A stretch of 64,000 bases of DNA from an uncultured Alphaproteobacteria bacterium. Lineage in GTDB: Bacteria; Bacteroidota; Ignavibacteria; OLB7. The stretch spans positions 323,475-387,474 of the forward strand of contig CAYVWR010000003.1 of the NCBI GenBank assembly GCA_964455525.1. Direction: 5' to 3'. The stretch's first letter is position 1, and each line of letters begins with the position of its first letter. The notes under the pieces were generated by a model, which saw nothing but the letters and a program-made list of their open reading frames with translations, searched no databases and was not told the origin of the DNA. The position numbers and the translations under genes were made by a program. Positions 20,956-57,331 of this stretch are shown here, piece after piece.

Positions 20956-20961
20956 CTATCA

Positions 20962-21951: not shown

Positions 21952-21956
21952 GAGCT

Positions 21957-23354: not shown

Positions 23355-23595
23355 CCCTTCTGCATAATCGTAGTGAGCCTCTGCCGGGTGTTCGCGCGGA
23401 GGCCATCCTCCGCGCGCCGCCTGGCAAAGAGCGGGGGATGAACATCAAGCCGGAATGTGTGTGGTGCAGGATACGATCGGCAGATCGTGCGCCTGGTTCG
23501 GAATCTTCAATATCGCTCACGCCTCTTCTACAACCCCTCTCTTCCACCGTGCAGCCTGGCGGGTTTTCCAGGAACTACGCTCCAGGCCCTATCGC

Positions 23596-27277: not shown

Positions 27278-27438
27278 TCCCCAACGTGCCGATTCGTGCT
27301 TTGTGAAGATATCCCGTGGAAACGATGCGGGATGATATGTCTGGGCTGTGATTGTCCCAGCAAACTCTTGTTGCCCTCTGTCCTCTCGTGATAGTGCAGG
27401 GGAGCCAGTATATCAAGTACACCACAACAACAATTTCT

Positions 27439-27891
27439 ATGAAACGAAGCCAAGTGCGATCGCTGTTTATTCGTGTCTGTGATCCGATGGGAATGCTGAT
27501 AGGTGATGCCACTGTGTCGGTGCGGAGCAGTGATGGGGTTGTGGAGCGTGTTGCCTCGGGTGTGGATAGGATAGGGCATGGTGTGAAGAAGGAGTATAAT
27601 CATTATATCAAAGATATTGAGCCAGGAACATATATCCTGGAGATCAGCCGACCAGGGTCGATACTGGAGCGCTTGGTAGTTGATATGCCGGATACTGGTC
27701 GGTATCTGGAATGTATGCTCCACGCAAAGGATAGTGAGTATGGGTATCGGGCAGGCCGGAGCGCTGGATATTGCACGGGAGCACTGGAAGTAGCCGTGAT
27801 GCATGCTGGCAGAGTTGAAGATTGTGATCTGCGTGGTACTCGGGAAGTCGCTGAGAGTTTTGGGCTGCACCTGTCCGGGATATTTGAATAG
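27439..27891 (+). pseudogene. Truncated duplicate of the 5' end (~150 codons) of the giant S8 gene, created by the tandem duplication. It ends GIFE* where the intact gene continues GIFKNADG.
   Basis: Identical to 30310-30762 apart from junction bases. The reading frame runs into the repeat junction and stops at 27891. Confidence 0.6.
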
Positions 27892-30762
27892 GATATGAAA
27901 AAAAGTTAACGTCGAGTTGCAAATGCATTGCATTGGCTCATCGCTCAGGGTATGTTCCCTCTGCGTGTACAACCGCCAATGATCTCGCTGCTCATCCAGT
28001 ATCGTTCTAAAGAAAGGTGCATGTATGCTGCTGATAAGATTGCACGTTCGTGCAGGTGTATCGCTCCAGGTTCTGCTGCTGCTGCTTGCGGTGGCTTCTG
28101 CACTGCATGCAGGGGAGCATGATGGCAGGGATCGCTACGCTCTGGTGCTGCCGGATAGCACGGAGGTGGACGCACCTGTGCAGACCAGCGAGTCACCGTT
28201 CAAACGTGGTCGATCGGGCCTGCGTGTGTATGTCTATGGAGACGATGGGCAACTGGTCTCGGATGCCGATGTCCAGGTCTTCTCGCTGATTGATGCGACG
28301 GTTCTTGCGGTCCCGTTCGACACACTGCATCGAGCGTATTCTCTGCGAGTGACCTGGGTGAAGGACTTCGAGTATGAAGAAGTGGATAGGGGAATCGCAC
28401 CGCACCGCTACAAGAAGCTACGGATCAGCAAAGCAGGATATCAGCCTCAGGAGTATTACCTGAACGAGTGTTGTGATGCCGGTCTGGGCCGGGTCGATAT
28501 CTATCTGGCACGACCAGGGGAACGCCTGTATTACGATGGGTGCCATGGCATACCGTTCACTCCGCATCGCGACCTTGCCTATGTGGAGTTTATCTGGAGC
28601 GATGCGGGTCATCGGAGGCAGAACCAGAAGGTGTTGAAGGAACTAGGGTTGCAGGTGGTGCGGAACTACCCAGGTGTTGCGATCAAGGAGACTTCACCGA
28701 AGCAGAGAGGTCGGCGAAGCCGTGTTGGCAGCAATGGTGTGGTTGTGCGGAAGTCGGGTGGGGGTGTGTTTGATGCGGTGGGTGATACGGTTCTGGGCGC
28801 GTTGCGCGGTGATACTCTGGTGCGTACCGCAGGGATGGTGCGTGGCATGAGCGGTGATCGTGTTGATGCTTACGACAACCGCTTGGTGCTGGTCTTTGGT
28901 ACTCTTGAGGATGCGTTGCTGGAGAACGACTACGAGACGGTGACGAACCTTTTGTGGGGTATGGGTGCCAGCGATATAGTTGTACAGTTTGGTGATCGTC
29001 TTATCGCGGAGTTCGATGCAGGGATGGGAGAAGGCATCCTGGACATCGCCGATAGCCTTCGGCGAACGCGTTTGTTCGATGCGTTGCAGAACACGGATGT
29101 CGGCACGTTCTCTCACTTCTACCAACGGAGGATCTCAAGGCAGCCGAAGCCGTCCTCGCCCGGCGGGAAGCGCACGCGGGAGGCCAGCCGATCGGCCTCG
29201 CAGTTGCGTTCGTCCGGCACGATCGTCTCTGGCAGTGGTGAGGTGCTGCTGCCGGTGCGTGTGGTTGGTGATTCCGGTGAGGTGGTCAACAATGTGATCG
29301 TGAGTGCATACCGGCACCTGGAATCAATACCGAGGACATCGTTGGCGGTTGGTTATGACTCATCGCGTTCGTTGTATCTGATTCCGTACAAGCCTACGAA
29401 GATGTCGTGGCTTGTGGCGTGGGCACCGGGTCGTGTACGTCAGGTTCGTCCCCTTTCGAGTTCTGTTCTCTCGGAAGTGATCGATGGGGTGCTGACCCTG
29501 CGGCTGTATAGCGTGCGCCTGGAATATTATTGGCTGGGGAGCTGGAAAGTTCTCTACGAGAGCCGTCCGGACTGGATGAGCCTGAGATACAAGCCGGGCC
29601 GGTTGGCAGCGGTTGAACGGTTGGTGCAGAGTCTGGATCTGCGTGTCGTGGGAGATCTGGAGCTGGAAGAATTGATAAGAGGCCCTATTGTATGGCCATG
29701 GGGACCTAATCCATTTCGTTATCGTGAAAACAACCTGGCACGGCTGCGTGAGGCAGAGATACTGATGGTTGCCAAACGCAACGGTGAGTTGTTCGATCGG
29801 TACGACAGTCGGGAGCTGGAAGGATTGCGTGGTGATACAAATGTCATCTTTGCGGGACCGACATCTGCATCGACGCATGTGTATGTTCATATGCATGATA
29901 ACGATATTCGCCTACGCTTGTCTGAGAGGATGACATCACGGGATCTAGGCTACCTGGTCGCACCATATGGGTTGAGTCTTGAGTCGGGAGTGACGGAGGA
30001 TGCCAAGGATCGTTACAGAGTGAGTCTTCCATTGGGGATGGGTGAAGGAGCCAGGGAGCTGATCGATCGGCTGATTCTAGTAAAAGGCATTGCAATCCCC
30101 AGCAGTGATAATTATCAATTTGAAAGTTGGCTTAAAGGGGAGGATTGATCCCCAACGTGCCGATTCGTGCTTTGTGAAGATATCCCGTGGAAACGATGCG
30201 GGATGATATGTCTGGGCTGTGATTGTCCCAGCAAACTCTTGTTGCCCTCTGTCCTCTCGTGATAGTGCAGGGGAGCCAGTATATCAAGTACACCACAACA
30301 ACAATTTCTATGAAACGAAGCCAAGTGCGATCGCTGTTTATTCGTGTCTGTGATCCGATGGGAATGCTGATAGGTGATGCCACTGTGTCGGTGCGGAGCA
30401 GTGATGGGGTTGTGGAGCGTGTTGCCTCGGGTGTGGATAGGATAGGGCATGGTGTGAAGAAGGAGTATAATCATTATATCAAAGATATTGAGCCAGGAAC
30501 ATATATCCTGGAGATCAGCCGACCAGGGTCGATACTGGAGCGCTTGGTAGTTGATATGCCGGATACTGGTCGGTATCTGGAATGTATGCTCCACGCAAAG
30601 GATAGTGAGTATGGGTATCGGGCAGGCCGGAGCGCTGGATATTGCACGGGAGCACTGGAAGTAGCCGTGATGCATGCTGGCAGAGTTGAAGATTGTGATC
30701 TGCGTGGTACTCGGGAAGTCGCTGAGAGTTTTGGGCTGCATCTGTCCGGGATATTCAAAAAT
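27892..30762 (+). repeat. Tandem direct repeat, copy 2 (2,871 bp). This is the ancestral copy and continues into the intact giant gene.
   Basis: Near-identical to 25021-27891. One substitution was noticed: G at 25045 versus A at 27916. Identity decays only in the last ~10 bp at the junction. Confidence 0.9.
28025..30148 (+). CDS. Secreted 707-aa protein of unknown function, copy 2 (identical to copy 1).
   Basis: Identical translation to 25154-27277. Confidence 0.6.
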   Translation: MLLIRLHVRAGVSLQVLLLLLAVASALHAGEHDGRDRYALVLPDSTEVDAPVQTSESPFKRGRSGLRVYVYGDDGQLVSDADVQVFSLIDATVLAVPFDTLHRAYSLRVTWVKDFEYEEVDRGIAPHRYKKLRISKAGYQPQEYYLNECCDAGLGRVDIYLARPGERLYYDGCHGIPFTPHRDLAYVEFIWSDAGHRRQNQKVLKELGLQVVRNYPGVAIKETSPKQRGRRSRVGSNGVVVRKSGGGVFDAVGDTVLGALRGDTLVRTAGMVRGMSGDRVDAYDNRLVLVFGTLEDALLENDYETVTNLLWGMGASDIVVQFGDRLIAEFDAGMGEGILDIADSLRRTRLFDALQNTDVGTFSHFYQRRISRQPKPSSPGGKRTREASRSASQLRSSGTIVSGSGEVLLPVRVVGDSGEVVNNVIVSAYRHLESIPRTSLAVGYDSSRSLYLIPYKPTKMSWLVAWAPGRVRQVRPLSSSVLSEVIDGVLTLRLYSVRLEYYWLGSWKVLYESRPDWMSLRYKPGRLAAVERLVQSLDLRVVGDLELEELIRGPIVWPWGPNPFRYRENNLARLREAEILMVAKRNGELFDRYDSRELEGLRGDTNVIFAGPTSASTHVYVHMHDNDIRLRLSERMTSRDLGYLVAPYGLSLESGVTEDAKDRYRVSLPLGMGEGARELIDRLILVKGIAIPSSDNYQFESWLKGED

Positions 30763-33700
30763 GCTGATGGGGTAACACAGGTGTTTTCGCCTGGTGCCGA
30801 TGGCTGCAATGAGAATGAGAGGGATATCCTGAAGAAGTGTAGTGATGCACTTCACACTGCGGGGATCTATAGCCACATAGGTATCGTTCTTGAGAGGAAT
30901 GAAGGGGCCATACATGTAGCAACGGGCATCATTCTTGCCAAATGCCTGCCTGGGATCGATGTTCAGTATGTACGAGATACGATCGAACGTGCCAGCCTGG
31001 AAATAGTGTATGAACATTCACCTGTAAGCCGCCTCTTTGAGATTGCGGTCAACGATGTTGCTGGAAAGAACATAGTGGATTCATGCAGAACATTGATGGA
31101 ATCCGGAGTGTTTGAATCCGCTGATCCCATGGCAACCGTAACCGCTGAACTGTTAAGCGGGAGTCAGGTGATCCCCAGTGATTTTCTCTTTCCTCTTCAG
31201 TGGCATCTCGCAACAGCAAATGTGCCGGAAGCATGGGCCATCCTACAAAGTCATGGTAGACCATCCACCGAGGTGAACGATCTGACGTATGGAAGCGCCG
31301 ATGTGGTTATCGCTATTGTCGATACCGGCGTTGATTCATCGAAGTATGAAGATGAACCTGATGGAGAAGGCGCTCCCAACCATACGGACTTTATAGGGAA
31401 TGTGCGCGGCGGTCTGCTTGCCCCTCTTATCGGATCGAAAAAAGTTTACAAGATCTATGATATGCGGACATTCAAACGTACGGATAACCATGGCAATCGC
31501 GATCCGAATATTCGTGGTGGGATGTACCCTGATAATTACAAGGTAACCTTGTCGCATGGGGTTTCATGTGCAGCCATTGCCACTGCCATGGCAAATGGCA
31601 GGGGAAGCGTGGGTGTTGCACCCAATGCGCGCCTCATTAGCATTCGTACCGCTCAGCAAGGGACGAATCTGAATCAAATTAACAGGAATACATGGTCATG
31701 GCTTGTGGGGCTGGACCCAGGATGGACCACCAATGGACCTGTGTATGATCCGTATGATATTCTTCCGGCGCAGTTTGGCACGCCCGGTAATCCAGGGCCG
31801 GGCGCGGATATCATCTCTAATAGTATGAGATTTAAGTACTTGGCGGAGAACTTTGATGCCGATATGCGAAACATTAGCGATGTGTGCTGGTACGGGCGGC
31901 AGCGAAGAGGTGCTATCTTCGTATTAGGGGCGGGCAATGATGATAGTAGCATTATGGATAGGCAGATGTTCGGATATCATCGTCGCATCATTGTTGTTGC
32001 AGCTTCTACTCTGGATTCCAAAGGGGTGGAGATCCGTGCTCCATATAGCAGCTATGGTGACAATTCCAGAGAGGTATATCCGCCTAAGGATAATTCTGGA
32101 AATAATGAAGGCTCTGAAGTCGAAAAGAAAAAAGAGATCCCTGACAGAAAACCCGACTGGCTCTATGTAGATGTTTCTGCTCCATCTGCTAACTATCCGG
32201 AATGCGACAATAATCCTCTGTATGCTGAGCTTACAATAAATGAAGATGGATCTGTTGGGCCTCCGGATGATACCTATAAGGTTTTTGGCCCTCGGCCCCA
32301 TATGGTCAATCGCCCACCATACAACCGTGCGATTGTCACAGCCGGTATGTTCGAGGATACGCGGGACTTTCTGCTTGGAGGCACTCTCTATCCACCAACG
32401 GATGAGAGTGCCAGAGTAAGCCAGCTCACACGCAGTAATCTGCCCGGAGATCATATCCGGGAAACCACACTGTGGGAGGCTGTGGATGCCCCTGTATCGA
32501 ACGCTACCCGTGTAAAGGTTGTCAAGGTGGCAAATGTGCCAGGGATTACCTATGCTCCCCACGATGCGGTCGTGATAGGAAAGGTCGGTTATAATGAAAA
32601 TGGAGTCGATGAAACCGCCATCAATGAGGTTGAGTCCTCCGTTGTGGTCGGTGTCACCGAATACCCCGATTATACGGAACTGGAACTGGATGGTTATCTG
32701 TGGAATGCACACGCTGCGGGCGCACCGGTATATACGGGGAAACGGAGCTATGTGGATCATTTCAGCGGGACATCGATGTCCACGCCCCTGGTTGCCGGCA
32801 CGGCTGCCCTTATACTCTCGGCAAATCCATACCTCACCAACATCGAGGTTCGCGAGATATTGCGATCGACGGCTGTAAAGATCGATATGCATGGAGGTAT
32901 GTGGCTTAGTACTCAGTTCAGAAGCCAGAGAGATAAAACAATCTTATCTCGTGATCGGGTTGCTCCTGCAATAGGTGTGCAGCCTCCTATCTTCAAGCCT
33001 ATCACGTCATCGTTAGGCATTGCAATCGACGCTGTCGCCGATAGTGGAAAATTCTCCAGGATCACTATTGCGGAAAATCAAAGCCGTGCGGGTTTCAGTG
33101 TTGGCCAGGCCGTTCTGATAGGCGCAGAGACATTGCTTGTTCGGGCCGCGACATTGCCGCCGAACCCGATCCAGCCTGTGACGATCACGGTCGAGAGTAC
33201 CGACGGATTCCACCCTGGCCAGATTATCCGGATTGGTGATGCGGATACCACATATTTTGCCGGGTTTCCAGTGAGACGGAATGATGGCAGTGACGATAGC
33301 ATGGATCAGAGTACGGAGGAGCCGGAGGCACGTGGCAGGATTATCGGGCTTGACCGTAAGAAGATCCTTGTAGGAAATACCAGAACCTATCAGGCAGGCC
33401 AGGCTATCCTGATAGGTGGGGTACGGTATGTTATAGAATTTGTCCAGGGAACATTCAAGTTGCTGCTGACAACGGAGTATGCGGGCGAAAACCACTGGCC
33501 CCATGTTCCCCGTATGGAGGTGGTCCCGGCCGATGTGCTTGAGGGCACCGTCGAAGAAATCGTGAGCGATACGCAGATGACCGTGATCTATACGGGGCCG
33601 GGGAAAAGCTTCACCACGACTCCCAAGCCTCTTGTCCGTGTTAAGGGAACCGAGTCCTCGGTGATTATGGATCTTCCCGGCGACGATGCCAGGGCGGTTA

Positions 33701-36700
33701 TCGTGCAGCGCCTCGGGAATGTGCATACTGAGGCTGACAAGAAGATGGTGCTCGGCGGCAGGACGCCATACTATAGCCGCCACCTGGGGTTTGGCAGGGT
33801 GGATGCCGCCGCCGCCGTGAGCGCTGCATTCAGTTATAGCCACAACGACAGGGATCTGATGGTACGTAAGTATATGGGGGATAATGGCACTACACGGCCC
33901 GATATGGCATATGAGGCTCTGAAGCTCAGCCCTGATATCTGGCTGAGCAACAGTGGTGATTCCGTTCTGCCCGCCGACGATGCCTATGGAACGCCTGCGC
34001 CCCACCAGACCTTTGCGTCCAATCAGCCCAGATGGATCTATGTACGGGTGAAAAATCGTGGCACGAAGCCAAGCCTGGAAGCATCGGTGCGATTTTATGT
34101 GGCAGTCAGGGACCGTGCGGAGATTCTGAAGTTCACGATGGATGATTTCCAGCAATCAAGGATCGATGGGGTGCCGTTTACGGTGTCAAGTGGCAATATC
34201 GGCACTCAGTATGTGGAAGAAGCATACCTCTTCCCCTTTGATGCTACCGATATGAGCGGTATACCCCATAACAGGACAATGGTGGTACGGACAAATAAAT
34301 GGGAGCTTGCCAATCTGCCGCTCGATGCCGTATTGTCGGGGCGCAAACGGATTTTTGTGCTTGCCGAGATCACCCCCCATGATGGGCGCGTCAAAGGGGC
34401 TGACAATAACTATATCGACACCATCTACAACAAGGAGAACTTTCTCGATATCCGTAATGATAACAACGTCGCGTTTCGTGAGGTGATCTTTGCCGATGTT
34501 CAGGTCAAGGGGCAGCCCGATGGCGAGCCTCTGCAAAAGCAGTACCCGGCGCCGAGATCCGGCAGGAAAAAATCTCAACTGTTCAGGATTGATCTGCTCG
34601 ACCGGGTTGGGGCATTTGTTGCTGAAAATGTCGTCGTGGAGGTGACCGGAGTTTGTGCGGGCCTATCTTCGGCGGTGGAGTTTTATCATACATCCGGCAC
34701 CGGCTGGCGAACCAGCGATCCTGGAGCCGACTGGATCTCCTTTGATGGTCCGCCCATGACGACGCACCCCGCCACCACCACCCCATCCAATCCTGTCAGC
34801 ATACCCGAAGCCGCGGTGGGGGACCTGTACGAAATGTTCTTTACCGGCACGTTTGCCGTTGATACTACATGGCAGTCCATCTCCATCATCGCTGTGATTC
34901 ATGATGACGAAGGAAGGGAGCTTGGGCGTAGCGGATGGGCCGCACAGATCGTGGAGGAGCCTGTCAGGTATGATGTTCTCGCTGATGCCGCCGTTGCCCG
35001 CCCTGCTCTCTCCGCCTTTGCAGATATGAGCCTACTGGACGAGCAGATAAGTGAATCGATGGCCTACGGCCCGCAGTCGTCCCTGGTGTTTCGTAGTACC
35101 AATAGCTTCACCTCGCAGGCCGATAGTGTGCCGGCCTATGCCGCCGCCGATGGTGTTGCGATGATACAGCGGATGGTCGATCCGGAGACCGGGCTGGTCG
35201 ATGAGCAGCGTGTGAACCTGATTATTGCGCCGCGTGGCGGGTCTGGCGTTGCTATTCAGCCTGTCCAGTATTTTGTCTATCGTGGTCTCAGGATCGGCGA
35301 TTTCCTGGGAGGGCCTGCAACCGGGAACGGCGGGGTCGATTATATCCAGGTGCGCTCCGGTCCAGCCGATGAGAACGACACCAGCGTCTCGGCTTTTATC
35401 AGGGAGATCTACAGAGGCATGGAGATGCGCCGTCAGGAGATGGTCGCCGCCGGAATTCCTTCGGGTGATATCCCGGATATCGAAAACGATCCGTTGTCGA
35501 GCAGCATTCTGGGATGGGAGGCGAGCGCCAGCCTGGAAAGCACGAACGATCTCCCCCTGGATGATTTTTTCAATCGATTCGATGAACTGCGCCAGCTTCC
35601 GCTGGTGCGCAGGGGAATGCATCTCGGCGATTTTCATGCCGGGGAGGAGGCAGAGTTCGGCATCGATATCGCGCTGCAAGGGGACTATGCGGTCCCGCTG
35701 ACGTTTGCGTATGCGCGCAGAGCCTACCATGAGATCAATCTGCTGGAGGATGAGCCTGCCTCGGAGTGGGAGGAACGGCGGCGGCGCGAGGATGCGCGCA
35801 ATTTTATCGATGCGGCGGCCTACTATGGCATGCACGGCTCGATCGGCGTCTACGATCATCAGGGGAGGTTGCGGCGGGGGGAGGAACTCTACAACGATCT
35901 GCTCCTTCCCTTCCTCAACAGAAACCGGGTCTATATCGATATCCGGAACGAGGCAGGATACTCGATGAACTATTCCGGCAATTATATGATGGATGGGGCA
36001 CAGGTGAAGGTGGGATCGGACCTTGCCTTGATGTACGCTGATATCTATGCCACCGATGGCTGGCCGATCGGCATGATAGAGCGCTCGCATAGCGAGATTC
36101 TCTCGGGAGAAGATGGCATCTTCTATCTCTCGCTCGCTGTTGCGGATAATACGCTTCCGCTCCTGTATGTAGAGCAGGGTATAGTGCAGGGCCAGCTCCA
36201 CCAGGGCTTTGTGCCGGGGAGTTGGCTGCTGGCCCAGGGGACGGAATGGACCTTCCCGGTCGGATTTCGGCTTCCGCAGGTAGAAGAAGGCGGGCAGATG
36301 CGCGATCTGGCCGGTATGATCCGGCTCCGCTATCTGCGCCAGATTCCTGCGGTGCCGGGGCTTGCAGTGGGGAACGTAGTGGCGGCGGAGCACTATACCG
36401 ATAATATCTTCGGTCCGGTGGATGCCGGTGTTGCCTGGGATGCCGCTCCGGGAAATTCGCCGATGAATCATCTGCAACAGACCCGATGGGACCGGCTTCA
36501 CGAAAGGCGATATGCGGATGGTCGGCAGACCGGCCATGGTATCTCCTTTGGCGCGCTTATGGAACGTGGCATCGCGGTGCGGAGCGGGCAGGTGCTCTTC
36601 TACAACGTCGCCGTCGATTTCTACAGCATAAGCGGAGGGGTGGTGCCAAAGGGGAGAGGGGCGGGAGTGGGCTTCGGCCCGCAGCAGAATTTCCTGGAGG

Positions 36701-38274: not shown

Positions 38275-38473
38275 GCGCCGGAATACCACTGCCGGGAGCG
38301 GCCGGGCGGAATACACCCGGTCGCTCCCGGCTTCGGATGGTCTATCGGTTATGCAGTCCGGCAGAGCATTCCCTGCGGCCATATCTACCAGAGCACTTCG
38401 ATTTTTGTCACCATCCCGCATCTATCCATCACGAATTTTTCACGTGGTCACCGCCACATTCTATGAAGATGTT

Positions 38474-47017: not shown

Positions 47018-47152
47018 CCGGGCATAGATGTTATGGAGCGGTGGTATCCCATATGCCACCGCTCTGCACGCCCGTGCTTTACAGGTGCTCCAACGTGGAT
47101 AAGGCCGCTATCGGCCAAGTAAGAGCTATCACTTCATATTATCATTCTTATT

Positions 47153-50100
47153 ATGTCGCAACAACAATCGATAGTGTTATCGTTCAGCAATATTGAATAT
47201 CAAGGCGGATTTGTCGGAAATAACTTCACCATCACTATACAGGTGGCTGCTGCGCGAAGTGGTGGCGGATCTCTGGGAACCGAATCGACACTCATCTCGT
47301 TGCCGATCACACAAGACACAAACCTGGACCATTACAGGATCGCAATGGCGGTGCCGTATCAACCGGCCGTAACCACCATATTTACTGTAGATATTAGCAT
47401 AACCGGCACCGGATCAGGTGCCAGTTCGAGCGGAAGCGCACAATCATCGATTCCGCTTTCGGCTGGCATATCCAGCCGTAGCGATGTCATTGCCGTTCCG
47501 GTTGCCAGAACCGGTGGGGGGCCTGGACCCGGTCCCGGCGGAAATGCAATCCTCAAGCTTTCCTTCGACACGATCGTTCGGGATGCGCCAGTCTGTTACC
47601 GGATGGATTGGCTGTGCCAGACCCGGAACACCATCCCTGTTGTTATGGGCTGGCTTTGCCAGGGAACCGGTTTCACCGTATCCCCCGATGGTCCTGCATT
47701 CTCTGGCCTGCAATCGGTGATCGAACTGGATGCCCTTCTCAAGAAACATATGCCCGGTCTGAACTGGCTCAACAGCCAGCTTTCCCTGGGATACTCTCCT
47801 ACAGGCCCGGATATGATGGGCCAGGCCGATTACGCCACCAGTATAACGCTTGCTGCAGCCCCCCAGGCCATGAGCCTGTCTTTGAGCCAGGCTCATGGCC
47901 TGAGCGGATTTTATCAGGATTTTACCACAAAGATAGGGAATTATGCTGGGGAGGTCTATCACCGGCTTCCCCAGCCTGAGCCGACTCTCTGTGCAGCGTG
48001 GCAAACCCTGCTGAACTGCTTTTGCAGGTTTTGCACTACTATGTCCGACTATCCAAGCCAGGATGTTGATCTCTGGACAAATCAGGCTGCCGGGGTGGTG
48101 CACGATGCCTATCAGGAGTTCGTACTCATCGCTGCCGCCGAGGGGATGGCGTATGCCATAAACCCGAATATCACCGATATCTGCGGAAAACTTGCTGAGC
48201 TTGTCGGGTTCTGGGCCTGGTGGTGCAGGAATTGCCCACGTCTCCAGATCACCTGGGGAAGTACCGTTCAGCCATATTATGATAGCCTTTATTCCATTGC
48301 TTCTCAAATGAGCTTCTGGGATGAGGCGGATCAGTTCGATTTCTGCGAGCCTCTGGCAAAGGGTCTTTGCGAGCGCTGGTTTGCCGGACTTGGATGTATC
48401 GAGCGCTTATGCGATCGGATGGACTATCTGCCGGGAACTGTCCTTACCACTCTCGAAAATTCATTCGGTGCGATACTCTACGCCGCGCTCTACGGGGTGG
48501 AATATAATCAGACCTCCTCTCAGGGAACCAGCTTCTGTTTTCAGATCGAGCGTCTGAAGCTCTATCTGGGATTGGTCTGTAGCAGCGGATCTATCCTTGG
48601 TGATGATCGTAGAGAAGAACTGGAAACTCTGATCGGCCAGCTCGAAGATGCCTACGGCAGCTTTCCCTACAGGAATCTCTGTGCCGAGGTGGACTGCGCG
48701 GAGTGGAGCCGCATTCTCTCCTGTCTGAATAGGATCTGCCAGAGAAAATCGGAGCTTTCGTTGAACGATGCCATCTGGCTGAGCGATCATTTCGCGGAGA
48801 TCGTTGATGATCTCTATTATGCGGTGGAGTCGCTGATGACACCGGCAACTCCTCCCTCTTCCGGAGGGAACGGGCTGGAGCTGATGTGCTGGAAGCTGGA
48901 TCGTATCGGTGGGTATGTCGAGGCCATCTGTTGCAGCGGGGAACCGTTCGATCCGGTCCTGAACGCACGTCTTTCCATGTTTCAGAGCGCGTTTGCAGAT
49001 TTGAATCTGCATGCTCCCGGAATCTGCGCCGATTGCGACCGCTGGCTTCCGATGCTGGAGTGCCTTGGCGCGATATGCGACAACAAGGGGATGGTGCCAC
49101 CGGATCTCGCCGAAAGCATCGCGGAGCTTTTCAGCCCCCCGATCCATGCCATCTATACATGGCTGCCGGATGATGGGAGCAACGAGGTGGCGCCGCCGCT
49201 GGAACCGCTCGGGCTTGATCCTCTCTGCTGGCGCTTGCAGAAAGTGCTGGCATGGTTCAACGATCTCTGCGCTGGTACCGAGGTGATGGATCCGGTGCTT
49301 CGGCAGAATCTGGAGGCTGCTCATTTCACTCTCACGGTTGCATTCGACGCGCTTGGGGAGGTAGAGAAGTGGCGGAATATCTGTGACCAGACCTCTGCGG
49401 TTTCGGGAGAATTGTGCGCTCGCTGGGTTCCGCTGCTCGCCTGTTTGCATGCTGCATGTGGCAATGCTCTTCTTCCATCGGCCATGCGGGATGCCATCCT
49501 GGCGGAGTTCGGGGAAATAATCGATCTGCTGGATTGGCTGCTTGGCACCCCGGATGGGTATTACGAGCCTCCGATTGAGATATCGATGAGCGATTTCTGC
49601 ATGAAGCTGGCTCGGGTACAACAGAAGATACATCAGATTTGTTCCAATCAGATCGCGGTCCATCCGATACTTCTGCTACGTCTGGAACATGAGCTTGAAC
49701 ATGCGCTGCCTGCCTTCAACACGCTTCTGGCTGCATATCCCAGTATCTGTGCAGGGGAGGAATTCTGTCACGACTGGATGCGTATCCTGGAATGCCTGTC
49801 GCGGTTGTGCGGCCAGCAGAATCTCCTCGGCGGGGATCTGATAGCACGGCTGATAACAAATTTCGGCAAGATCATCCATGACGCCTATCGCCGCGTCATG
49901 GGGCAGGAGCCGGAGGTGATCCCTGGTTATACCATCGAGATCCTCTGCTCCGATGCAAGTGCTCTGCTTGAGTGGTTTGTAGACTATTGCGGATGCGGAG
50001 TTGGGATAACAGCCGGGCTGAGAGATGATCTGAGCGTCTATCTCGCCCAGCTTCAACTTGCCTATGATGGCCTTCATCCCTGCAAGAGCGATTGTGCCAC

Positions 50101-53100
50101 TACCTCGGTCGATCTGACAACCGGAACGCAGCCGGGCGGATATAAGGTGGACTGGATCATCACCGATACCAGCCTTGCCATATCTCTTCCCCGCCCTGCT
50201 ATCGATATCGATGGCCCATCGGCGCCATACCAGGGTTCGGCGTGGGTTTTTGCTGTTGGCGATGATGTTCAGGTGCCGGATGGTATGACGATTCTGGATC
50301 GGTACTTCTGCCTGCGGGACGCTGCGGATATCACGGTAGATCTCCTCTTCCAGGCCAGTGATCCGGTGTTGATCTGGATCAATGACCAGCTCCTGGTCGA
50401 TCTTCTCGACGAAGGTTCGATTGTCAGGCAGACGGTTCATCTCGCCGCCGGCCGACATCGGGTAAGGGTGAAGGTGGTGCATGCGGTGCCGGGATATCAT
50501 AAGGGGTTTAATGCCCAGGGAAGTATTACCACCTCGTTGCCTGCTCTGGTCAGGGATGAGTGCTGCGATGCGATGGGAGCCTCCGTGCCCGGCACACTGC
50601 TGAAAAAACTCTGCTGCGATTCCTGGATCGACTGTGGCAGGCTCTATGAATTTTCGGCCCTTGCCAGGATTCTCTGTGGTGCCAGCCGCGAGCCGAACGA
50701 CCCGTTCTTCGATCTCCCTTCGATAGGGGTGGCCAATACGCTGATGGTGGATTTTGAAGCGACGACGCTACAGGATCTGCTCGTGCTTCTGGAGATCAAT
50801 GGCAATCCGCCGCTTGGGATCGAGCCGGTCGGCACCGGCTTCTGCGATCGTCTGAGGTTCATTCTGCAGAATCTGATTTTTGCCTATTCCAATCCTGCGC
50901 TGCTGACACCGTTGCTGCGGTACAGGATCGAATGTTTTTACACCAGGTTGCTCGATGGCATTGCGGCTGATGCCGAATTGTTGATCGACCCACCGGCCGA
51001 CTGCTCTCCCTGCGAGGATATCTGTCTCAGATGGCTCGATCTGCTGCGCTGCCTGTGCGCCCTCTGCGCCGATGAAGAATCGGTGGCTATCGGGTTATTT
51101 GAAACACTGGTATGCGGAGCCAATGGTCTCTATAATTATCTCTATCCCGGCGGCTCTGCCGTGCCGGTTCCGGTATATCCTGTGCCATATCCGCCCGAGG
51201 CGCCCGTTACCTGCTGTGATATAGTGCGGAGAACCTATACGTTCTTTGCCCTCCTCTGCCTGGAGTGCGGGAGCGTTCCGGCGGATATGGCCGCTGAGTT
51301 GGAACTTCGCTACGCTGATTTTCATGCCCAACTCCAGGTGCTCCGTGCCACATCACAGGGAACTGCTCCCGATCTCTGCTATGACCGTTGCGGCTACTGG
51401 CAGCCGAAGCTTGAATGCCTGATGAATCTCTGCCTGCGGGTTCCCGATCTGCCGAGCGATGTGCGCGATGCCTTTGGCGATCTGCTCAGCAGGCATGTGA
51501 GGCCGCTGTTCGATCTGCTGCGTGGAGAGGCTTCCTTCGATAATCCATTTGAGCCTCATGTCATAGGCGATACCTGCTGGCAACTGTTCCAGATATGCCG
51601 GATGATGCATCTGCATTGCTCGCCGCTGAATCTATGGTCGCGCGATCTGATGCAGGAGATTGATGGGTTTCGGCATGCGTTCGATGCCGACTATGCCGTC
51701 GTTATGTCATTGCTCGGAACAAAGGATATCCCCGCATGTTATTTCAGAGACCGATCGTGCGAAGTTCTGCAGGCGATCCCGGATTTCTATCGTCTCTTCT
51801 GTTCCGATGTGCCCGATCTACAGCATATGCCTGTCAGGCAGCTCGACACCTTGACGGCCGGGCATGGGCTGGAAATACGGATGCTACAGTATCATACGGG
51901 CGCGCCGAACACGGCTTATCAAACAGCCGGAGGCTTCTGCCAGCGATTCGGTTCGTTTCTGGGGATTCTTGCGGCGGCATTCGGACACTATGGGCAATTG
52001 GCTCCGGCGTACAGGCTTGCTGCCGACCTGCTCTACACTGCCGTGGATATCCTCGCTGCCGAGTACCGCATGCTGGTACCGGAACGAGTCGTCCCGGCTT
52101 CTACGGCGATGAGCCGGTATCGCGATACATGGCTGGATCTGCTCGGCTGCCTCTGTGCGATATGCGGATATGTGAAAGGGCTGAGCGATCAGGAGAAAGA
52201 GACACAGGAGAATCAGGAAATCCTTTCCTATTTCGATCCTGTGTCGGCTCTGATGATGGCCGTCGATGAGCTGTATGATGGTATCGTGCCGCTGGCAGCT
52301 CAGCATGATCTGCCACTCCCTTCCGGGATCTGTGTTGCAGGGGATGGCTGCACGCGTGTCGGGGGGGCCATGAGCTTTTTCTCCATGCTCGGCCTTTCCT
52401 CGGCAGATGTGCCAGCCGACCTTGTGGCTCTGCTGAAAAGCATTCTGAAGGATCTTAGAGAAGAGATCGCGCCACTTCGGGGGTATCTTGCCAGCATCGG
52501 ACGTGATCTCTGCCGCCAGGAGAATCCCGACTTTGTCGCAGTGCAGTCGTCGCATCTGTACATCCAGGCGGCGGGGTCCACCGGCGCCGATGGCAGCTCC
52601 CCCGGAATTCATCTTCGTTGGAGTCTGCTGGGAGAAGATCTTGGGGAGCGTCATCTTCCAAAGGGAAATCTGGCATCTCCCGGTTCCGAATATTATGGGG
52701 CGAATGGCTATAACAAGGCCGGTGATTTTGTGCGAATCTACCGGACCCCATATAAGCAGAAGTTTGCGGCCATCATCGATCTCAATGAAACGATGCCGGT
52801 GGCGGTCATTCCGGGGAATGCCTATACGCCGTGGCGGCTGGACTATCATGATATCCTCACCGATCCTCTCTTTCCCGATTCCGGGACGACGGTAGGGCTG
52901 CTTCTGTTGGACCCATACGCCGGGTCGATCGAGATACCCGAGCCGGGGTCGCCCGATTTTACGGAGTATGTGCAGGATATCTTTGCAACGTATAACGGCG
53001 CATTTGAACTTGATACGCCGCTCAAGCTGATATTTGGTTTTGAAGTCATACCACCACATTCTGCTACAGGAATATCGACACAGTTCGAGGCCATCTCCCA

Positions 53101-56100
53101 CATCGGTGATCCGAGCCTCCATTCTACTGATATTCTTACCTGCCGGAAGACGATCGCCGAAGGGGATAAACCGCATAAGATCTACAGCGAGCATATCCGA
53201 TCGGTGCGCTTCAAGCCTGTCAACTATAAGCCGGTACAATTGATCGTCGAAACATATCACGATTATCATACGGCAATCAAACGCCGATTCCTCTGGGAGC
53301 ATATCGGTGATTTTGGGCTTTCCACCGATACCGGCGAGGTATTTCGCCGTCTGGAGGATGCGCCGAGATATGTGGTGCACAACCGCTGGCCGAAATATTC
53401 TTCATCGGACAGCAGTTCCAATGAAGCTACGCCGCAGAAGGTGAATGTCGATACGTACAAGGACCGATGGAGTCCGAATCGTGAGTTCTTGCCGAACGGC
53501 GATCCCAATCCCGGTTATGATCCGGCGCGTCCGGATTATCTGCGCGATCCGCAGCAGTCGCTTCGCTGGGCCATCGAAACGTATCTCGATGAAAGCCGGG
53601 ATCCGGCAAAACTTGAGGCCTGGATCGATCAGCCATCGCTTGGAGATGGCGATCAGAGCTATATCAGCATCAGCCTTCTTGCCATGCTCCGATTCGCGGC
53701 CCAGGATTATCATGTTGCCCGCATGCTTGGGCTGGGCCATATCGATTGGGAGGTTCCGATGCAGCAGGATTCATCGGAACAACAATATGTCTATCTGGCG
53801 GAGTATATAACGCTGCCGAACAGCACCATGCCAAATTCTATGATACACCGGTCGCTGTCGCTCCCCACGGGGCGCTCCGATCATCGCCTCCCGGTAACGC
53901 CGGAGATTCTGAACCTGGAGCCAGGTCTGGCATCCGATCTTACCGATGAGCAGGGATATACACGGTTCGGTGACAGCCGTTTTATCAAGGTCAACCGCAA
54001 GGATCTGATGTTCGATCTTCCGGCCGTAACCGAATTTTTTGCAGGGACGGAGGAGTTCAGCCGTGGTGATAATACTCGTCCGGTATTCTATGGGGTGAAA
54101 TTCAGCGTCAAGGACCCTGCCGATCCTACCGTATGGATGATTGATCCGAGCAATGACGCCGGAGAAAATCCGCCCATCGGATACAGGCCATACAAGGACC
54201 CGGCCGGCGAGCCGGAAATCATACCAGTTCCCGATACAGGGAATCCTCTCTTTATCCACAGAATAGAGCGGCGTGAAGAACACACCGGAGTTCATCGCTA
54301 CGGCATGTATGGCATCAACTGGTTTTCGCGTGCCTCTGCTGTCAGCGAAAGCACCAATACGGTCGAGAATACATTTCCTGTCAGGAATACTCTGCTCCCT
54401 CCATTAAATCTGACGGCGCAGTATATCCAGAAGGAGCAGGCACTGATGTTCACCTCGGCAGCCGAGCAGAACCCGGTAAACGGCCTTCTCGGAAAATCCA
54501 GGGTTACGTTCGACTGGAATCATATCCATACTATCGCCTATCAGGAGGCGGAGTATGTGGATTTCTATTTCCGGAATACCGCACCGGAGATGATTAAAGG
54601 AAGGGTGAAGTATGTGGAATCCGCGCTCGATGGAGCCACTGCCAGAGTGACTCTTGAAGCATACCAGGAGTCACAGGGAACGATCATCGATCCAAACGAT
54701 CCCGATAAGCCGGTTTTCCAGAATCCAGATCGTTTTGTCGGTGGTATGTTCGTTACAGATCAACGGAAATATATCGTCGCGGATATCATCCTGGTTCTCT
54801 CCGGGCCTGCTGCGCCGGTTGCCGTCTTCGAGCTGCAAGGTGTTATGGAGGCTACGCCGGATGGGCCTCCAGGTGCAATGCTTCCGGTGCTTCCGGTTGC
54901 CGGGACGATTGTGGTGATTCAGGAAAATGCTTCCGCTTCCTCCCGGTGGACCGCTCTTCCGGAGAACCGGATCAAGCTGGCGAGGTTCAATATTGCTCCA
55001 TATGCCTCGGGCACTTCTGGTTCGCCGACAGCGCTCTATAGCGAGAGCATCCGGGAGAATGACAGGTATGTACGGTATGCGATGGGAGGGCTGGCCGACC
55101 CTGCTGTATCGGTGCAGCGGGATAGCACTCCCGGTATGCTGGAGAATATCTTTACCCTCACATTTTCCAGCGCAGTGCTGTATCCATACAGTGCCCAGTT
55201 CCCTGAGTACTCCAATGTCGATTTCTATAAGGGGACTGCGCGTGTTCATCTGCCGGATGAAGGCGTACGGCAGGTGGAGGTCCTCAAGATCCATTCATAC
55301 GATCCTCTGGTTCTGTATGTATACGATCCAGAAGGAGAAATTGCTCCACAGAACGGAAGTGTCATCAGGTCTGTCAATTTCCATCCATCCTACAGGGTCT
55401 ATCTCGATCTGGGGGCGGATGGCATAACGACTGATGATATTGAGCCGCAGGGGGGAGCGCAGACCAGGACGACATTGCTTGCAGCACGTTCGGTGGATAC
55501 CACCACCTGCGCCGGGGCGATCTTCAGGTCGCCGCTGGCTACCGCCCCGCATAGCGCACGTTTGATGATCGAGGCAAAGACGCCGAACGACCCGGTTGGG
55601 CCGGAGTTTGCCACGCGCCCCGATTATTACGGCAAATCGACCTATACGTTTGACACCCGTATCGCTCTGCGGCCGGTGATGGAGCCATACGGCATGATGT
55701 TCTATCGGTGCGATGAACAGGCAGTTCTGGCAGCGTTATATACAAGTGCCACCATCGCGGAGATAGGTGCCGCCCTGGCTGGCAGGGAGGGGGAGGCATC
55801 GTACGCCGACCGGTGGAGGGGGCTTGTGAATGGAACCCTTGTCGGGGGAGCATTCGAGATATTCGATGGCTACGGATTCCCGCTTCCTGATAATCCGGAT
55901 ACCTTTATCCCTACTCCCGCAAATCCGTCAACCCTGCGCTACCCCTTTCTCTCTGGAACGCCAACCGCAGAGGACATCCGGGATGTGATCGATACTGTGT
56001 TCCTTCCGCTGACGGAATATCCCGTTATCGTGGGTCTGGTCGGGATTGATGATACCCTTCGGACATCGAGCAAGAAGCCGGTGATACGGAAGGATGACCC

Positions 56101-57007
56101 GATGTTCGATCCATATCCGATGATACGGGTAGGCGATCCCGGCGATGGGAGAACCGTTCGTTTCACCGATTTTACGCTCGATGGAGCATCGAACAACATC
56201 TACTTCTATTATACACGGGAGATGTCAAATGAGATGGTTTTTGGCGAGCGGAGTACGATCGTAGGTCCTGTACGGCTGATCAACTCGATGCCGCCTGCTG
56301 CTCCGGCCATCACAAGGATTGCAGGCCAGTCGCCGAACCCATTGCTTGATCTGCAAGCGCAGGTTTCCTTCGAGATCGTGCCATACCCGCCGGGTGAGAG
56401 GATCGAGAAGCTGGGGGTCTACCGTGCTCTCTCCGAAGTGGATACGCGCAGTCTGGCGCTGATGCGCCATGTCGGCGATATGGACATTCCGCCAGTCGGC
56501 ACCATCCAGCAGCGATATACGGTGGTGGATCGCTTCCAAAACGAGGCTATTCCCTTCGGGCGGCTGCTCTATTATCGCATTGTGGCGTACAGACGTATTC
56601 TCAACGAAGAAGGGAATGTGGAGCATGTGATGTCCCTTCCCTCGGACGTGATAATGACAAACATCGTCGACACTGTAAGCCCGGTGGCACCGGCCATTAT
56701 CGTCTCCGATCCTCTGCCGGTTACCGGGGATGCCATCAGCGGTCTGGTTCTGGCATGGTCCCCTACTACATATCAGGGAACCTATGCTCTGTACATGATG
56801 ACTTCCGGTGGCAACTGGATGAAACTGAAGGACTATGCTCCTGATGACGAGCTGGCATATGACTGGGCAGAGGAGAACCCGGACAATGCAACGCTACCGG
56901 CATTTCGTAACGGCAGCAGGGTCTATCACCGGTTCAAGGTGATGGTGAAAAATTCCTCCGGTCTGGTGAATCTGGAGGATACGGTAAAGCTTGTCCATGC
57001 GCCATAG
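47153..57007 (+). CDS. Giant protein (3,284 aa) of unknown function. The N-terminal ~1,700 aa is built from at least 8 copies of a ~130-aa Cys/Trp helical repeat, and the C-terminus has FN3/Ig-like beta modules.
   Basis: Repeated motifs: CAAWQTLLNCFCRFC, CAEWSRILSCLNRIC, CDRWLPMLECLGAIC, CARWVPLLACLHAAC, CHDWMRILECLSRLC, CLRWLDLLRCLCALC, CGYWQPKLECLMNLC and YRDTWLDLLGCLCAIC. FN3-like tyrosine corner LLYYRIVAYRRILNEEG near the C-terminus. Confidence 0.65.
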   Translation: MSQQQSIVLSFSNIEYQGGFVGNNFTITIQVAAARSGGGSLGTESTLISLPITQDTNLDHYRIAMAVPYQPAVTTIFTVDISITGTGSGASSSGSAQSSIPLSAGISSRSDVIAVPVARTGGGPGPGPGGNAILKLSFDTIVRDAPVCYRMDWLCQTRNTIPVVMGWLCQGTGFTVSPDGPAFSGLQSVIELDALLKKHMPGLNWLNSQLSLGYSPTGPDMMGQADYATSITLAAAPQAMSLSLSQAHGLSGFYQDFTTKIGNYAGEVYHRLPQPEPTLCAAWQTLLNCFCRFCTTMSDYPSQDVDLWTNQAAGVVHDAYQEFVLIAAAEGMAYAINPNITDICGKLAELVGFWAWWCRNCPRLQITWGSTVQPYYDSLYSIASQMSFWDEADQFDFCEPLAKGLCERWFAGLGCIERLCDRMDYLPGTVLTTLENSFGAILYAALYGVEYNQTSSQGTSFCFQIERLKLYLGLVCSSGSILGDDRREELETLIGQLEDAYGSFPYRNLCAEVDCAEWSRILSCLNRICQRKSELSLNDAIWLSDHFAEIVDDLYYAVESLMTPATPPSSGGNGLELMCWKLDRIGGYVEAICCSGEPFDPVLNARLSMFQSAFADLNLHAPGICADCDRWLPMLECLGAICDNKGMVPPDLAESIAELFSPPIHAIYTWLPDDGSNEVAPPLEPLGLDPLCWRLQKVLAWFNDLCAGTEVMDPVLRQNLEAAHFTLTVAFDALGEVEKWRNICDQTSAVSGELCARWVPLLACLHAACGNALLPSAMRDAILAEFGEIIDLLDWLLGTPDGYYEPPIEISMSDFCMKLARVQQKIHQICSNQIAVHPILLLRLEHELEHALPAFNTLLAAYPSICAGEEFCHDWMRILECLSRLCGQQNLLGGDLIARLITNFGKIIHDAYRRVMGQEPEVIPGYTIEILCSDASALLEWFVDYCGCGVGITAGLRDDLSVYLAQLQLAYDGLHPCKSDCATTSVDLTTGTQPGGYKVDWIITDTSLAISLPRPAIDIDGPSAPYQGSAWVFAVGDDVQVPDGMTILDRYFCLRDAADITVDLLFQASDPVLIWINDQLLVDLLDEGSIVRQTVHLAAGRHRVRVKVVHAVPGYHKGFNAQGSITTSLPALVRDECCDAMGASVPGTLLKKLCCDSWIDCGRLYEFSALARILCGASREPNDPFFDLPSIGVANTLMVDFEATTLQDLLVLLEINGNPPLGIEPVGTGFCDRLRFILQNLIFAYSNPALLTPLLRYRIECFYTRLLDGIAADAELLIDPPADCSPCEDICLRWLDLLRCLCALCADEESVAIGLFETLVCGANGLYNYLYPGGSAVPVPVYPVPYPPEAPVTCCDIVRRTYTFFALLCLECGSVPADMAAELELRYADFHAQLQVLRATSQGTAPDLCYDRCGYWQPKLECLMNLCLRVPDLPSDVRDAFGDLLSRHVRPLFDLLRGEASFDNPFEPHVIGDTCWQLFQICRMMHLHCSPLNLWSRDLMQEIDGFRHAFDADYAVVMSLLGTKDIPACYFRDRSCEVLQAIPDFYRLFCSDVPDLQHMPVRQLDTLTAGHGLEIRMLQYHTGAPNTAYQTAGGFCQRFGSFLGILAAAFGHYGQLAPAYRLAADLLYTAVDILAAEYRMLVPERVVPASTAMSRYRDTWLDLLGCLCAICGYVKGLSDQEKETQENQEILSYFDPVSALMMAVDELYDGIVPLAAQHDLPLPSGICVAGDGCTRVGGAMSFFSMLGLSSADVPADLVALLKSILKDLREEIAPLRGYLASIGRDLCRQENPDFVAVQSSHLYIQAAGSTGADGSSPGIHLRWSLLGEDLGERHLPKGNLASPGSEYYGANGYNKAGDFVRIYRTPYKQKFAAIIDLNETMPVAVIPGNAYTPWRLDYHDILTDPLFPDSGTTVGLLLLDPYAGSIEIPEPGSPDFTEYVQDIFATYNGAFELDTPLKLIFGFEVIPPHSATGISTQFEAISHIGDPSLHSTDILTCRKTIAEGDKPHKIYSEHIRSVRFKPVNYKPVQLIVETYHDYHTAIKRRFLWEHIGDFGLSTDTGEVFRRLEDAPRYVVHNRWPKYSSSDSSSNEATPQKVNVDTYKDRWSPNREFLPNGDPNPGYDPARPDYLRDPQQSLRWAIETYLDESRDPAKLEAWIDQPSLGDGDQSYISISLLAMLRFAAQDYHVARMLGLGHIDWEVPMQQDSSEQQYVYLAEYITLPNSTMPNSMIHRSLSLPTGRSDHRLPVTPEILNLEPGLASDLTDEQGYTRFGDSRFIKVNRKDLMFDLPAVTEFFAGTEEFSRGDNTRPVFYGVKFSVKDPADPTVWMIDPSNDAGENPPIGYRPYKDPAGEPEIIPVPDTGNPLFIHRIERREEHTGVHRYGMYGINWFSRASAVSESTNTVENTFPVRNTLLPPLNLTAQYIQKEQALMFTSAAEQNPVNGLLGKSRVTFDWNHIHTIAYQEAEYVDFYFRNTAPEMIKGRVKYVESALDGATARVTLEAYQESQGTIIDPNDPDKPVFQNPDRFVGGMFVTDQRKYIVADIILVLSGPAAPVAVFELQGVMEATPDGPPGAMLPVLPVAGTIVVIQENASASSRWTALPENRIKLARFNIAPYASGTSGSPTALYSESIRENDRYVRYAMGGLADPAVSVQRDSTPGMLENIFTLTFSSAVLYPYSAQFPEYSNVDFYKGTARVHLPDEGVRQVEVLKIHSYDPLVLYVYDPEGEIAPQNGSVIRSVNFHPSYRVYLDLGADGITTDDIEPQGGAQTRTTLLAARSVDTTTCAGAIFRSPLATAPHSARLMIEAKTPNDPVGPEFATRPDYYGKSTYTFDTRIALRPVMEPYGMMFYRCDEQAVLAALYTSATIAEIGAALAGREGEASYADRWRGLVNGTLVGGAFEIFDGYGFPLPDNPDTFIPTPANPSTLRYPFLSGTPTAEDIRDVIDTVFLPLTEYPVIVGLVGIDDTLRTSSKKPVIRKDDPMFDPYPMIRVGDPGDGRTVRFTDFTLDGASNNIYFYYTREMSNEMVFGERSTIVGPVRLINSMPPAAPAITRIAGQSPNPLLDLQAQVSFEIVPYPPGERIEKLGVYRALSEVDTRSLALMRHVGDMDIPPVGTIQQRYTVVDRFQNEAIPFGRLLYYRIVAYRRILNEEGNVEHVMSLPSDVIMTNIVDTVSPVAPAIIVSDPLPVTGDAISGLVLAWSPTTYQGTYALYMMTSGGNWMKLKDYAPDDELAYDWAEENPDNATLPAFRNGSRVYHRFKVMVKNSSGLVNLEDTVKLVHAP

Positions 57008-57331
57008 AGTAGCTCTCCGCATCAGGCACCCGCATGCTCGGTTGGTTCCCGATGTCGATATCAGAACCGCTTCGATCCATCCAATGGCCGGGGCGGTTCT
57101 TCATTGTATCGGCGTTCGCCCGGCTGTAGCTCTGCTCTTCATGGCTACAGCCCTTCGGTTCATGCGGGCAGATTCAACGGTTCAACAATGTTTTCATAGC
57201 TTGAGGGCTGGTGGCTTCTTGAAGAGACCGATGTACGGACTACTGTGCATGAGGGCACTTCCGGCAGACTGGTGCCGGCCGCGGCACATCGTTTCCCTGG
57301 CAATATTCAAACCCTAATCGTCGATACAACA

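Follow-up and report, generated by a model that had tools for sequence, protein, structure and literature searches.

The locus considered here raises two linked questions: do three giant genes that follow one another in the genome of an uncultured bacterium belong together and, if they do, what might their products be doing? The genes lie in a stretch of 64,000 nucleotides (nt), called the window throughout, taken from contig CAYVWR010000003.1 (positions 323,475 to 387,474 of assembly GCA_964455525.1; named as an uncultured alphaproteobacterium and placed by GTDB in the Ignavibacteria, OLB7). All three open reading frames (ORFs) are read from the + strand: ORF A, gene 1, at 30310-38274 (2654 amino acids, aa; full open frame 30223-38274), ORF B, gene 2, at 38474-47017 (2847 aa; full open frame 38351-47017) and ORF C, gene 3, at 47153-57007 (3284 aa), which makes 8785 aa in total. 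A preliminary description of the window, written by a model from the letters alone, had reported three consecutive co-directional giant ORFs, and with the ATG starts chosen there the ORF listing bears this out, including spacers of 199 nt between A and B and 135 nt between B and C. The start of B is correctly placed at ATG 38474, where the N-terminal consensus of its family, MxxxxFYPPLS, begins, and the alignment of C with its ortholog P0002, to which it is 36% identical, begins at residue 1. The same description had allowed that resequencing might reveal frameshifts or stop codons; an independent Logan assembly of the source sample, SRR16798011, gives an identical translation of C together with 2155 aa of B, so frameshifts are unlikely and the ORFs are not artefacts.

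The first question is answered by synteny. Pieces of the window were compared by BLAST and phmmer with loci L004-L008 and L009-L088, which yielded 75 loci with a complete B. A relative of C lies directly downstream of B at 72 of these, the first conserved part of gene 1 (A-core1) lies upstream at 63, and all three stand in order at 62. The same three families in the same order across many species make the trio one conserved unit, and the claim of a functional unit rather than three random large genes, for which a comparison of genomes had been proposed as a check on the trio as a block, is upheld by this count and by the recurrence of the giant trio elsewhere. The spacing from B to C in the relatives is mostly -4 to +60 nt, as in an operon. 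The module (A-core, B, C-core) is conserved and has the look of a single transcript, and the three ORFs are its genes 1, 2 and 3. That they are instead three unrelated large genes, or an artefact of assembly or annotation, is hardly credible: the region does adjoin a tandem duplication of 2871 bp, a possible assembly problem, but the independent assembly holds the identical C and part of B, and orthologs of all three genes in the same order in many genomes refute the idea.

Relatives of the N-terminal module of B were found in at least 197 species genomes in a scan of one genome per species. Most belong to the Bacteroidota, whose carriers include the easily cultured soil and freshwater genera Pedobacter, Mucilaginibacter, Chryseobacterium and Ferruginibacter; other carriers belong to the Acidobacteriota, Planctomycetota, Chlorobiota/Kapabacteria and a few Proteobacteria, and Longimicrobium (Gemmatimonadota) is among the homologs. 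The minimal module totals roughly 4500-5000 aa. By comparison of the sequences, the window carries a giant subtype in which A has an N-terminal extension with a peptidase of family S8, B an insertion of ~1000 aa and C an N-terminal extension of ~1800 aa. This subtype is apparently restricted to Kapabacteria-like genomes. The full giant trio is also present at L004, from the metagenome-assembled genome (MAG) SZAS-92, and at L093, and A, B and the start of C are present at L009 (Kapaibacterium) and L010. MAG SZAS-92 holds both a giant trio (L004/L010) and a short one (L008/L012) within one genome. L093 comes from the same sample as the window, SRR16798011, which has thus yielded a second giant trio, 35% identical to the first, from another organism.

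The preliminary description had found no recognisable global homology for the three proteins. This stands in so far as B and C lie outside the curated families, with no match in Pfam, NCBIfam, PADLOC or PHROGs and none in the PDB by sequence or family profile, but hundreds of uncharacterised homologs exist (62 for B, more than 429 for C-core and 1284 for A-core). Seven of the 62 B homologs are full-length (35-41% identity, one of them named Kapabacteria), and ~55 are proteins of ~2000 aa without the insertion. Relatives of C were counted with C-core as the query, since full-length C gave only 2 proteins, its repeats filling the list of candidates; they are 1450-2400 aa long, and 119 of the 120 C-core relatives listed have no precomputed Pfam domain. 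The 1284 relatives of A-core are cluster representatives, part of which match only its C15-like half and many of which are giants of 2400-2900 aa. The literature searched does not mention the family, DUF6603, PF20248 or PF27118, and holds nothing relevant for PA0049 or for giant genes. The sequences are in the databases as hypothetical proteins and, as far as these searches go, no description of the module as one system exists.

B is best viewed as two conserved modules separated by a variable site. Its N-module (aa 1-1340; 38474-42493) consists of an alpha/beta part and a helical part, which extend to about aa 245, followed in the AlphaFold model by an all-beta up-and-down sheet of ~760 residues (aa 246-1009). 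The C-module (aa ~2331-2847; 45464-47014) is conserved throughout the B family. The insertion between them (aa ~1341-2330; 42494-45463), delimited by BLAST coverage and a hidden Markov model of the repeat, is missing from the ~2000-aa homologs and holds five Cys-rich helical repeats of a kind common to B and C. In homologs of B from other species the site between the two modules holds a domain of the ConA-like lectin or Laminin_G_3 type, or one like a 3-keto-disaccharide hydrolase.

Within B, the region of the beta sheet (aa ~246-1006) is related to DUF6603 (PF20248), a name given to a domain without assigned function. B of the window has no Pfam match at E <= 0.01, and the gathering score for DUF6603 is 27 bits; this cut-off is exceeded by two homologs of B, P0064 at 48.6 bits and P0060 at 29.4 bits, so the homology to DUF6603 is transitive rather than direct to the Pfam model. 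B also matches a protein of Mycetohabitans megaplasmids annotated by PGAP as DUF6603 (E = 1e-37). The beta-sheet region alone is common to the two, the Mycetohabitans protein lacking the N-terminal and C-terminal modules of B as well as the partner genes. On the megaplasmid of Mycetohabitans endofungorum (L089, 14185-27206) the 2496-aa DUF6603 protein comes after a 1322-aa hypothetical protein and a phospholipase D-like protein. This set is flanked by insertion sequence elements and toxin-antitoxin genes, and the host is a fungal endosymbiont.

C is made of two unlike parts. C-core (aa 1797-3284; 52541-57004), the conserved signature of gene 3, is ~1490 aa long and is built of beta-sandwich (FN3-like) and mixed domains in series, seen as strings of FN3-like sandwiches in the AlphaFold model. 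The N-terminal extension (aa 1-1790; 47153-52522) contains nine copies of the Cys-rich repeat together with other repeated segments. The repeat is ~100 aa long, looks helical from its sequence, and has six conserved cysteines and an invariant tryptophan; five copies lie in B (42926-45187) and nine in C (47978-52444). Among the proteins compared it occurs only in the Kapabacteria-like giant subfamily, and no relative of it was found in the PDB or Pfam. The repetitive Cys/Trp and FN3-like segments noticed earlier in these ORFs are therefore real. Of the 84 cysteines of C, 81 are within the N-terminal extension, and only 3 are outside aa 148-1787. Six conserved cysteines per repeat form a pattern typical of disulfide-bonded extracellular modules.

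A is the enzyme-bearing member of the trio and belongs to the giant, S8-fused subtype. Its first ~330 aa are similar to the N-terminus of the L009 ortholog and are followed by a Peptidase_S8 (subtilase) domain at aa 331-858 (31300-32883; Pfam E = 3.2e-29, with matches to subtilisins in the PDB), in agreement with the subtilase module first read from the sequence. The match is split (aa 331-586 and 812-858) by an insertion of >200 aa before the catalytic serine. The triad is nevertheless intact and in subtilisin order, with D338 (DTG), H416 (HG) and S822 (GTS), and the oxyanion residue is N543 (GAGN), so that by its Asp-His-Ser triad and oxyanion asparagine A belongs to Peptidase_S8. Peptidase_S8 is present in all 18 giant relatives of A that were sampled. 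No domain was placed in the middle part of A between the S8 domain and A-core. A-core itself is the C-terminal 1085 aa, and includes A-core1 (aa 1570-2230; 35017-36999), the conserved signature of gene 1, which matches the 696-1124-aa gene 1 proteins of L005, L006 and L008.

The last part of A-core has the fold of the pyroglutamyl-peptidases (C15), in a degenerate form in the window (37471-38271). The domain scores 28.5-31 bits against a cut-off of 22.7 for Peptidase_C15, and the profile of the A family matches pyrrolidone-carboxylate peptidases in the PDB (E = 1.6e-10). Membership in Peptidase_C15 is defined by the catalytic residues Glu81-Cys144-His168 (Bacillus amyloliquefaciens numbering); in a weak alignment of A with 1aug this triad was not found, and the match is one of fold. 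Among 106 representatives of the family the position of the nucleophile is serine, not cysteine, in 85, the acid and the histidine being retained; this is suggestive of a C15 fold adapted as a serine hydrolase. This serine is missing from 15 of 42 S8-fused giants and from 6 of 64 others. A is set apart from the S8 and C15 peptidases in that both domains are small parts of a protein of 2654 aa and the S8 domain carries its long insert. In a tblastn search of plasmids C-core had no match, and from A the C15-like part alone was matched. The stand-alone genes for this half of A-core are on plasmids of Streptomyces, Kitasatospora, Enterobacter, Tenacibaculum and others, two of eight being annotated as 'pyroglutamyl peptidase' and the rest as hypothetical or not at all. 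The C15-like half is therefore an independently mobile domain family.

The second question, that of function, turns largely on where the proteins act. The reading preferred here, to which a probability of about 0.4 is given, is that the three proteins form one large complex which acts outside the cytoplasm, binds a surface, carries hydrolases and is exported without Sec signals; a surface, adhesion or toxin-delivery role is the most plausible one. Action outside the cytoplasm is suggested by the lectin-like inserts in homologs of B, by PF02018 in one homolog of C, by cores poor in cysteine beside six-Cys repeats, and by the strings of FN3-like domains. No signal peptide or hydrophobic helix was found in A, B or C when the N-termini and family consensus sequences were read by eye and the hydropathy scanned. 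The lack of signal peptides at the family N-termini of A-core, B and C-core and the lack of hydrophobic helices argue for export by a route other than Sec. The intact S8 triad, the serine with acid and histidine in most C15-fold domains, the PETase-like hydrolase that adjoins the module at other loci and the phospholipase D-like neighbour of the DUF6603 protein all point to an enzymatic subunit.

At some loci the context is one of release, or resembles that of a phage. Five families of peptidoglycan hydrolase occur among 135 small co-directional neighbours of the module, and in Chryseobacterium a VanY/M15 peptidase lies upstream of it. In Pedobacter (L016) the first gene of a co-directional operon encodes an N-acetylmuramidase (endolysin) and the last a tail-fibre-like protein (E = 2.5e-38), and the operon also has a gene whose product matches a phage tail-protein PHROG (E = 4e-24). 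In another Pedobacter (sp. R-06, L043) a pair of genes encoding proteins of 182 and 216 aa is repeated three times in tandem upstream of B (2680-6797), an arrangement that calls to mind arrayed immunity or adaptor genes.

In the mechanism proposed, B would be a very large beta-sheet scaffold or a pore-like element, its variable insertion site carrying what may be lectin-like or carbohydrate-binding modules in other species. C would be a long FN3-like chain providing reach and binding. A would be the enzyme: its activity would come from the S8 protease in the window, and in the majority of other members from a C15 fold with Ser-His-acid residues. The complex would leave the cell without Sec signals, by lysis, in vesicles or by some other route. 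Scaffold, binding chain and enzyme together would thus make a binding-plus-delivery device, whether for toxin delivery, predation or adhesion, which would be analogous, not homologous, to the Tc/ABC toxin complexes or the host-recognition modules of phages. A broader proposal, which must be called doubtful at present, is that the module is an unrecognised, multi-phylum, three-component machine for extracellular binding and enzyme delivery, independent of Sec, built on a giant beta-sheet or barrel scaffold made of a single chain and unrelated to Tc, RHS, contractile injection systems or the cargo of secretion systems; the window would then hold its largest known form, of about 8800 aa.

Several observations weigh against a complex of this kind. 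Peptidoglycan hydrolases are found at only about 7 of the ~75 loci, and in the window, according to Pfam, the trio has lipopolysaccharide (LPS)/polysaccharide and housekeeping genes as neighbours rather than genes of lysis or of phages. No export system for the module and no characterised homolog of its proteins was found, their location and assembly being what we infer. The AlphaFold models are of moderate confidence only, with predicted TM-scores (pTM) of 0.42 and 0.58, and the sheet of B may be open or may close into a barrel. The six cysteines of each repeat could bind metal in the cytoplasm rather than form disulfides. In the C15-fold domain of A in the window the positions of the catalytic Glu, Cys and His are occupied, in the weak alignment to 1aug, by Ala, Pro and Gly.

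Some of the same evidence would suit a structure of the cell's own envelope, an adhesin, a fibril or something like an S-layer, in which B would be a giant outer-membrane beta-barrel anchor, C an FN3 stalk and A a surface protease. The chain of FN3-like domains in C-core, the lectin-like inserts of the homologs and the LPS/polysaccharide cluster beside the trio in the window are all as such a structure would have them. It is, however, unlikely. Outer-membrane barrels and the surface proteins of Bacteroidota require a signal peptide, a lipobox or the C-terminal domain of the type IX secretion system (T9SS), and none of these is present in any of the three families; the flanking genes, moreover, vary between species. 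B also differs from the giant outer-membrane barrels (TonB-dependent receptors, LptD, SprA) in having no signal peptide, plug or POTRA domain, and the Z-scores are low for its size. Cargo of the T9SS, or a Sec-dependent surface protein, was considered and rejected on the grounds that there is no Por_Secre_tail and that the N-termini and consensus sequences, read by eye, show no hydrophobic signal.

The lack of signal peptides can also be taken at face value, as that of proteins that stay in the cytoplasm. B and C would then be giant sensors or scaffolds of an intracellular conflict or anti-phage defence system and the proteases of A the effector, released or activated on infection. The patchy distribution of the module fits this, as do the varied hydrolytic partners (S8, C15-fold and PETase-like, with phospholipase D beside the distant DUF6603 relative) and the weak match of the S8 domain to 'subtilase' in PADLOC. 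The small co-directional neighbours include transposases, an integrase and two ThsB-TIR genes, and some loci lie amid transposases, toxin-antitoxin genes, a ThsB-TIR gene, a methylase and an integrase. Yet no known sensor or effector domain, such as an NTPase, a nuclease or a TIR, is found in the 8785 aa, the ATPase that adjoins the trio is not conserved, and the carbohydrate-binding inserts, the Cys-poor cores with Cys-paired repeats and the tail-fibre-like neighbours point to the extracellular side. Defence must consequently be considered quite unlikely. A known defence system was rejected, as PADLOC-DB 2.0 gave the 'subtilase' match for A (E = 1.6e-5) and none for B or C. So was a MoxR-vWA (VMAP) conflict system, for which there are only weak matches of the ATPase to AAA_5 and Mg_chelatase, no vWA gene, and no such ATPase at 80 loci.

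The Pedobacter operon with its endolysin, tail-protein match and tail-fibre-like protein brings to mind a different origin, in which the module would be a phage tail or host-recognition module, domesticated or borne by a prophage, of the kind of a tailocin or a tail-fibre complex. One provirus contig of IMG/VR carries the module, and in BFVD C-core matches the structures of minor tail, J-like and baseplate proteins. That contig is, however, the only one among 2.9 million viral contigs, and tblastn of B and C-core found no match in 50,697 phage genomes. The TM-scores of the BFVD matches are 0.06-0.10 and therefore indicate generic strings of FN3 domains. A-core, B and C have no PHROG match, and capsid, terminase, sheath and tube genes are absent from the window, so that a phage origin is improbable. 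The likeness to phage tail fibres, the J-like tip and minor tail proteins consists in FN3-like chains without signal peptides and in tail-fibre-like and endolysin genes as neighbours at some loci; the module differs in having no homolog in phage genomes, in TM-scores of at most 0.10 and, in the window, in the lack of other virion genes. An extracellular contractile injection system or other phage tail-like particle was likewise rejected: no sheath, tube or baseplate gene (gp25, gp27, gp6) is found in the cluster, the ATPase is not conserved, and A-core, B and C match no PHROG.

Among the known systems closest to the module are the Tc (ABC) complexes TcA/TcB/TcC of Photorhabdus, Yersinia and relatives. 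Both comprise three adjacent and very large genes without signal peptides, with variable receptor-binding inserts in one subunit and an enzymatic component. The release of Tc depends on lysis, and some loci of the module adjoin phage-type lysis enzymes. The resemblance does not extend to sequence or fold, for which no relation was found: where Tc has an alpha-helical pore and a shell, B has an up-and-down beta sheet, and there is, as far as can be seen, no RHS cage that encapsulates the enzyme. Homology to RHS or Tc toxins had been named in advance as a result that would reduce the novelty of the trio. No match to the Pfam families of VRP1, TcA, SpvB, TcdB or RHS was found in it, and neither a TcA-type subunit nor an RHS/YD-repeat cocoon was seen; a Tc/ABC toxin or an RHS protein was rejected on this basis.

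The spacers between the genes hold a further feature of the giant subtype. A strong GC-rich hairpin had been claimed in each, and both exist: the first lies directly 3' of the stop codon of A (38292-38330, + strand) and the second, with a perfect stem of 9 bp, after the stop of B (47036-47064, + strand), offset by one base from the 47037-47065 given before. The RNA fold of 38275-38350 has an energy of -50.3 kcal/mol (z = -5.97), which none of 200 shuffled sequences equalled, and the whole B-C spacer folds with z = -2.68. A terminator-like stem-loop also lies after the stop of C (57056-57110, + strand; -25.8 kcal/mol), part of which is listed as terminator-like. A run of T was searched for after both spacer hairpins and is present at neither. 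Hairpins directly after the stops of the giant genes recur at L004 (1273-1419 and 9853-10000), L009 (9845-9991) and L093 (9497-10000 and 18629-18802); these stem-loops are GC-rich, and their position is conserved, their sequences being unrelated. The best 60-nt windows in the A-B and B-C spacers of these orthologous loci have energies of -31 to -44 kcal/mol. At loci of the short type the genes are tightly packed instead. The strong stem-loop ending each giant gene is probably a terminator or a stabiliser of the 3' end. An AT-rich promoter had been placed at 47105-47150, in the B-C spacer, and finds no support, as neither a sigma-70-type pattern nor the TAnnTTTG motif of Bacteroidota was found there.

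Downstream of the trio lies a gene for a MoxR/Mg-chelatase-like AAA+ ATPase (57332-58864, + strand), recognised by weak matches (Pfam AAA_5 at E = 1.9e-6, Sigma54, Mg_chelatase) and without a match in the PDB. The preliminary description had included a divergent AAA+ ATPase in the unit. The gene is there and its sequence match is weak, but it is co-directional and not conserved with the trio: no relative was found in 80 related loci, and at L004 the orthologous trio is followed by cyclase and dehydrogenase genes with the ATPase absent. It was on these grounds rejected as a part of the unit. In the window the ATPase is followed by a convergent aminotransferase gene.

Upstream, a unit of 2871 bp is present twice in tandem (25018-27888 and 27889-30759, + strand), with 2825 bp identical, and because of this duplication the window has two copies, 100% identical, of the gene for a secreted protein of 707 aa (25154-27277 and 28025-30148, + strand). 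Also within the duplication, the opening ~150 codons of A occur a second time, as ORF 27352-27891 (+ strand). It is either a very recent event or an artefact of assembly. An amplified secreted protein had been counted as part of the unit; the two identical ORFs are as described, but the link to the trio is weak. At L009 and L010 a secreted protein of ~290 aa that precedes the S8-type gene 1 is a distant relative of the 707-aa protein (E about 1e-7), and the ~290-aa protein of L009 is paralogous to the N-terminal part of giant A at L009/L010; by these sequence matches the 707-aa protein would be weakly linked to the module. Further upstream is the LPS/surface-polysaccharide cluster (9746-24621), with genes for a sugar transferase, an epimerase, an acetyltransferase, a deacetylase, an NTP-transferase, a GHMP kinase and a SIS protein (heptose pathway), and with a glycosyltransferase family 9 (GT9) heptosyltransferase at 23596-24621 on the - strand.

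At least 197 species genomes thus encode this module of very large proteins, which has neither functional annotation nor structural relative. How such a module can grow is seen in the giant subtype: gene 1 has acquired a protease by fusion, and repeat arrays have entered gene 2 at one defined site and extended gene 3 at its N-terminus. Cultured carriers exist, and the function is therefore directly testable. If the module does prove to be a device for export, for toxin delivery or for predation, it would represent new machinery for the interaction of bacteria with other cells or with cell surfaces, and would add a new giant beta-sheet fold as well.

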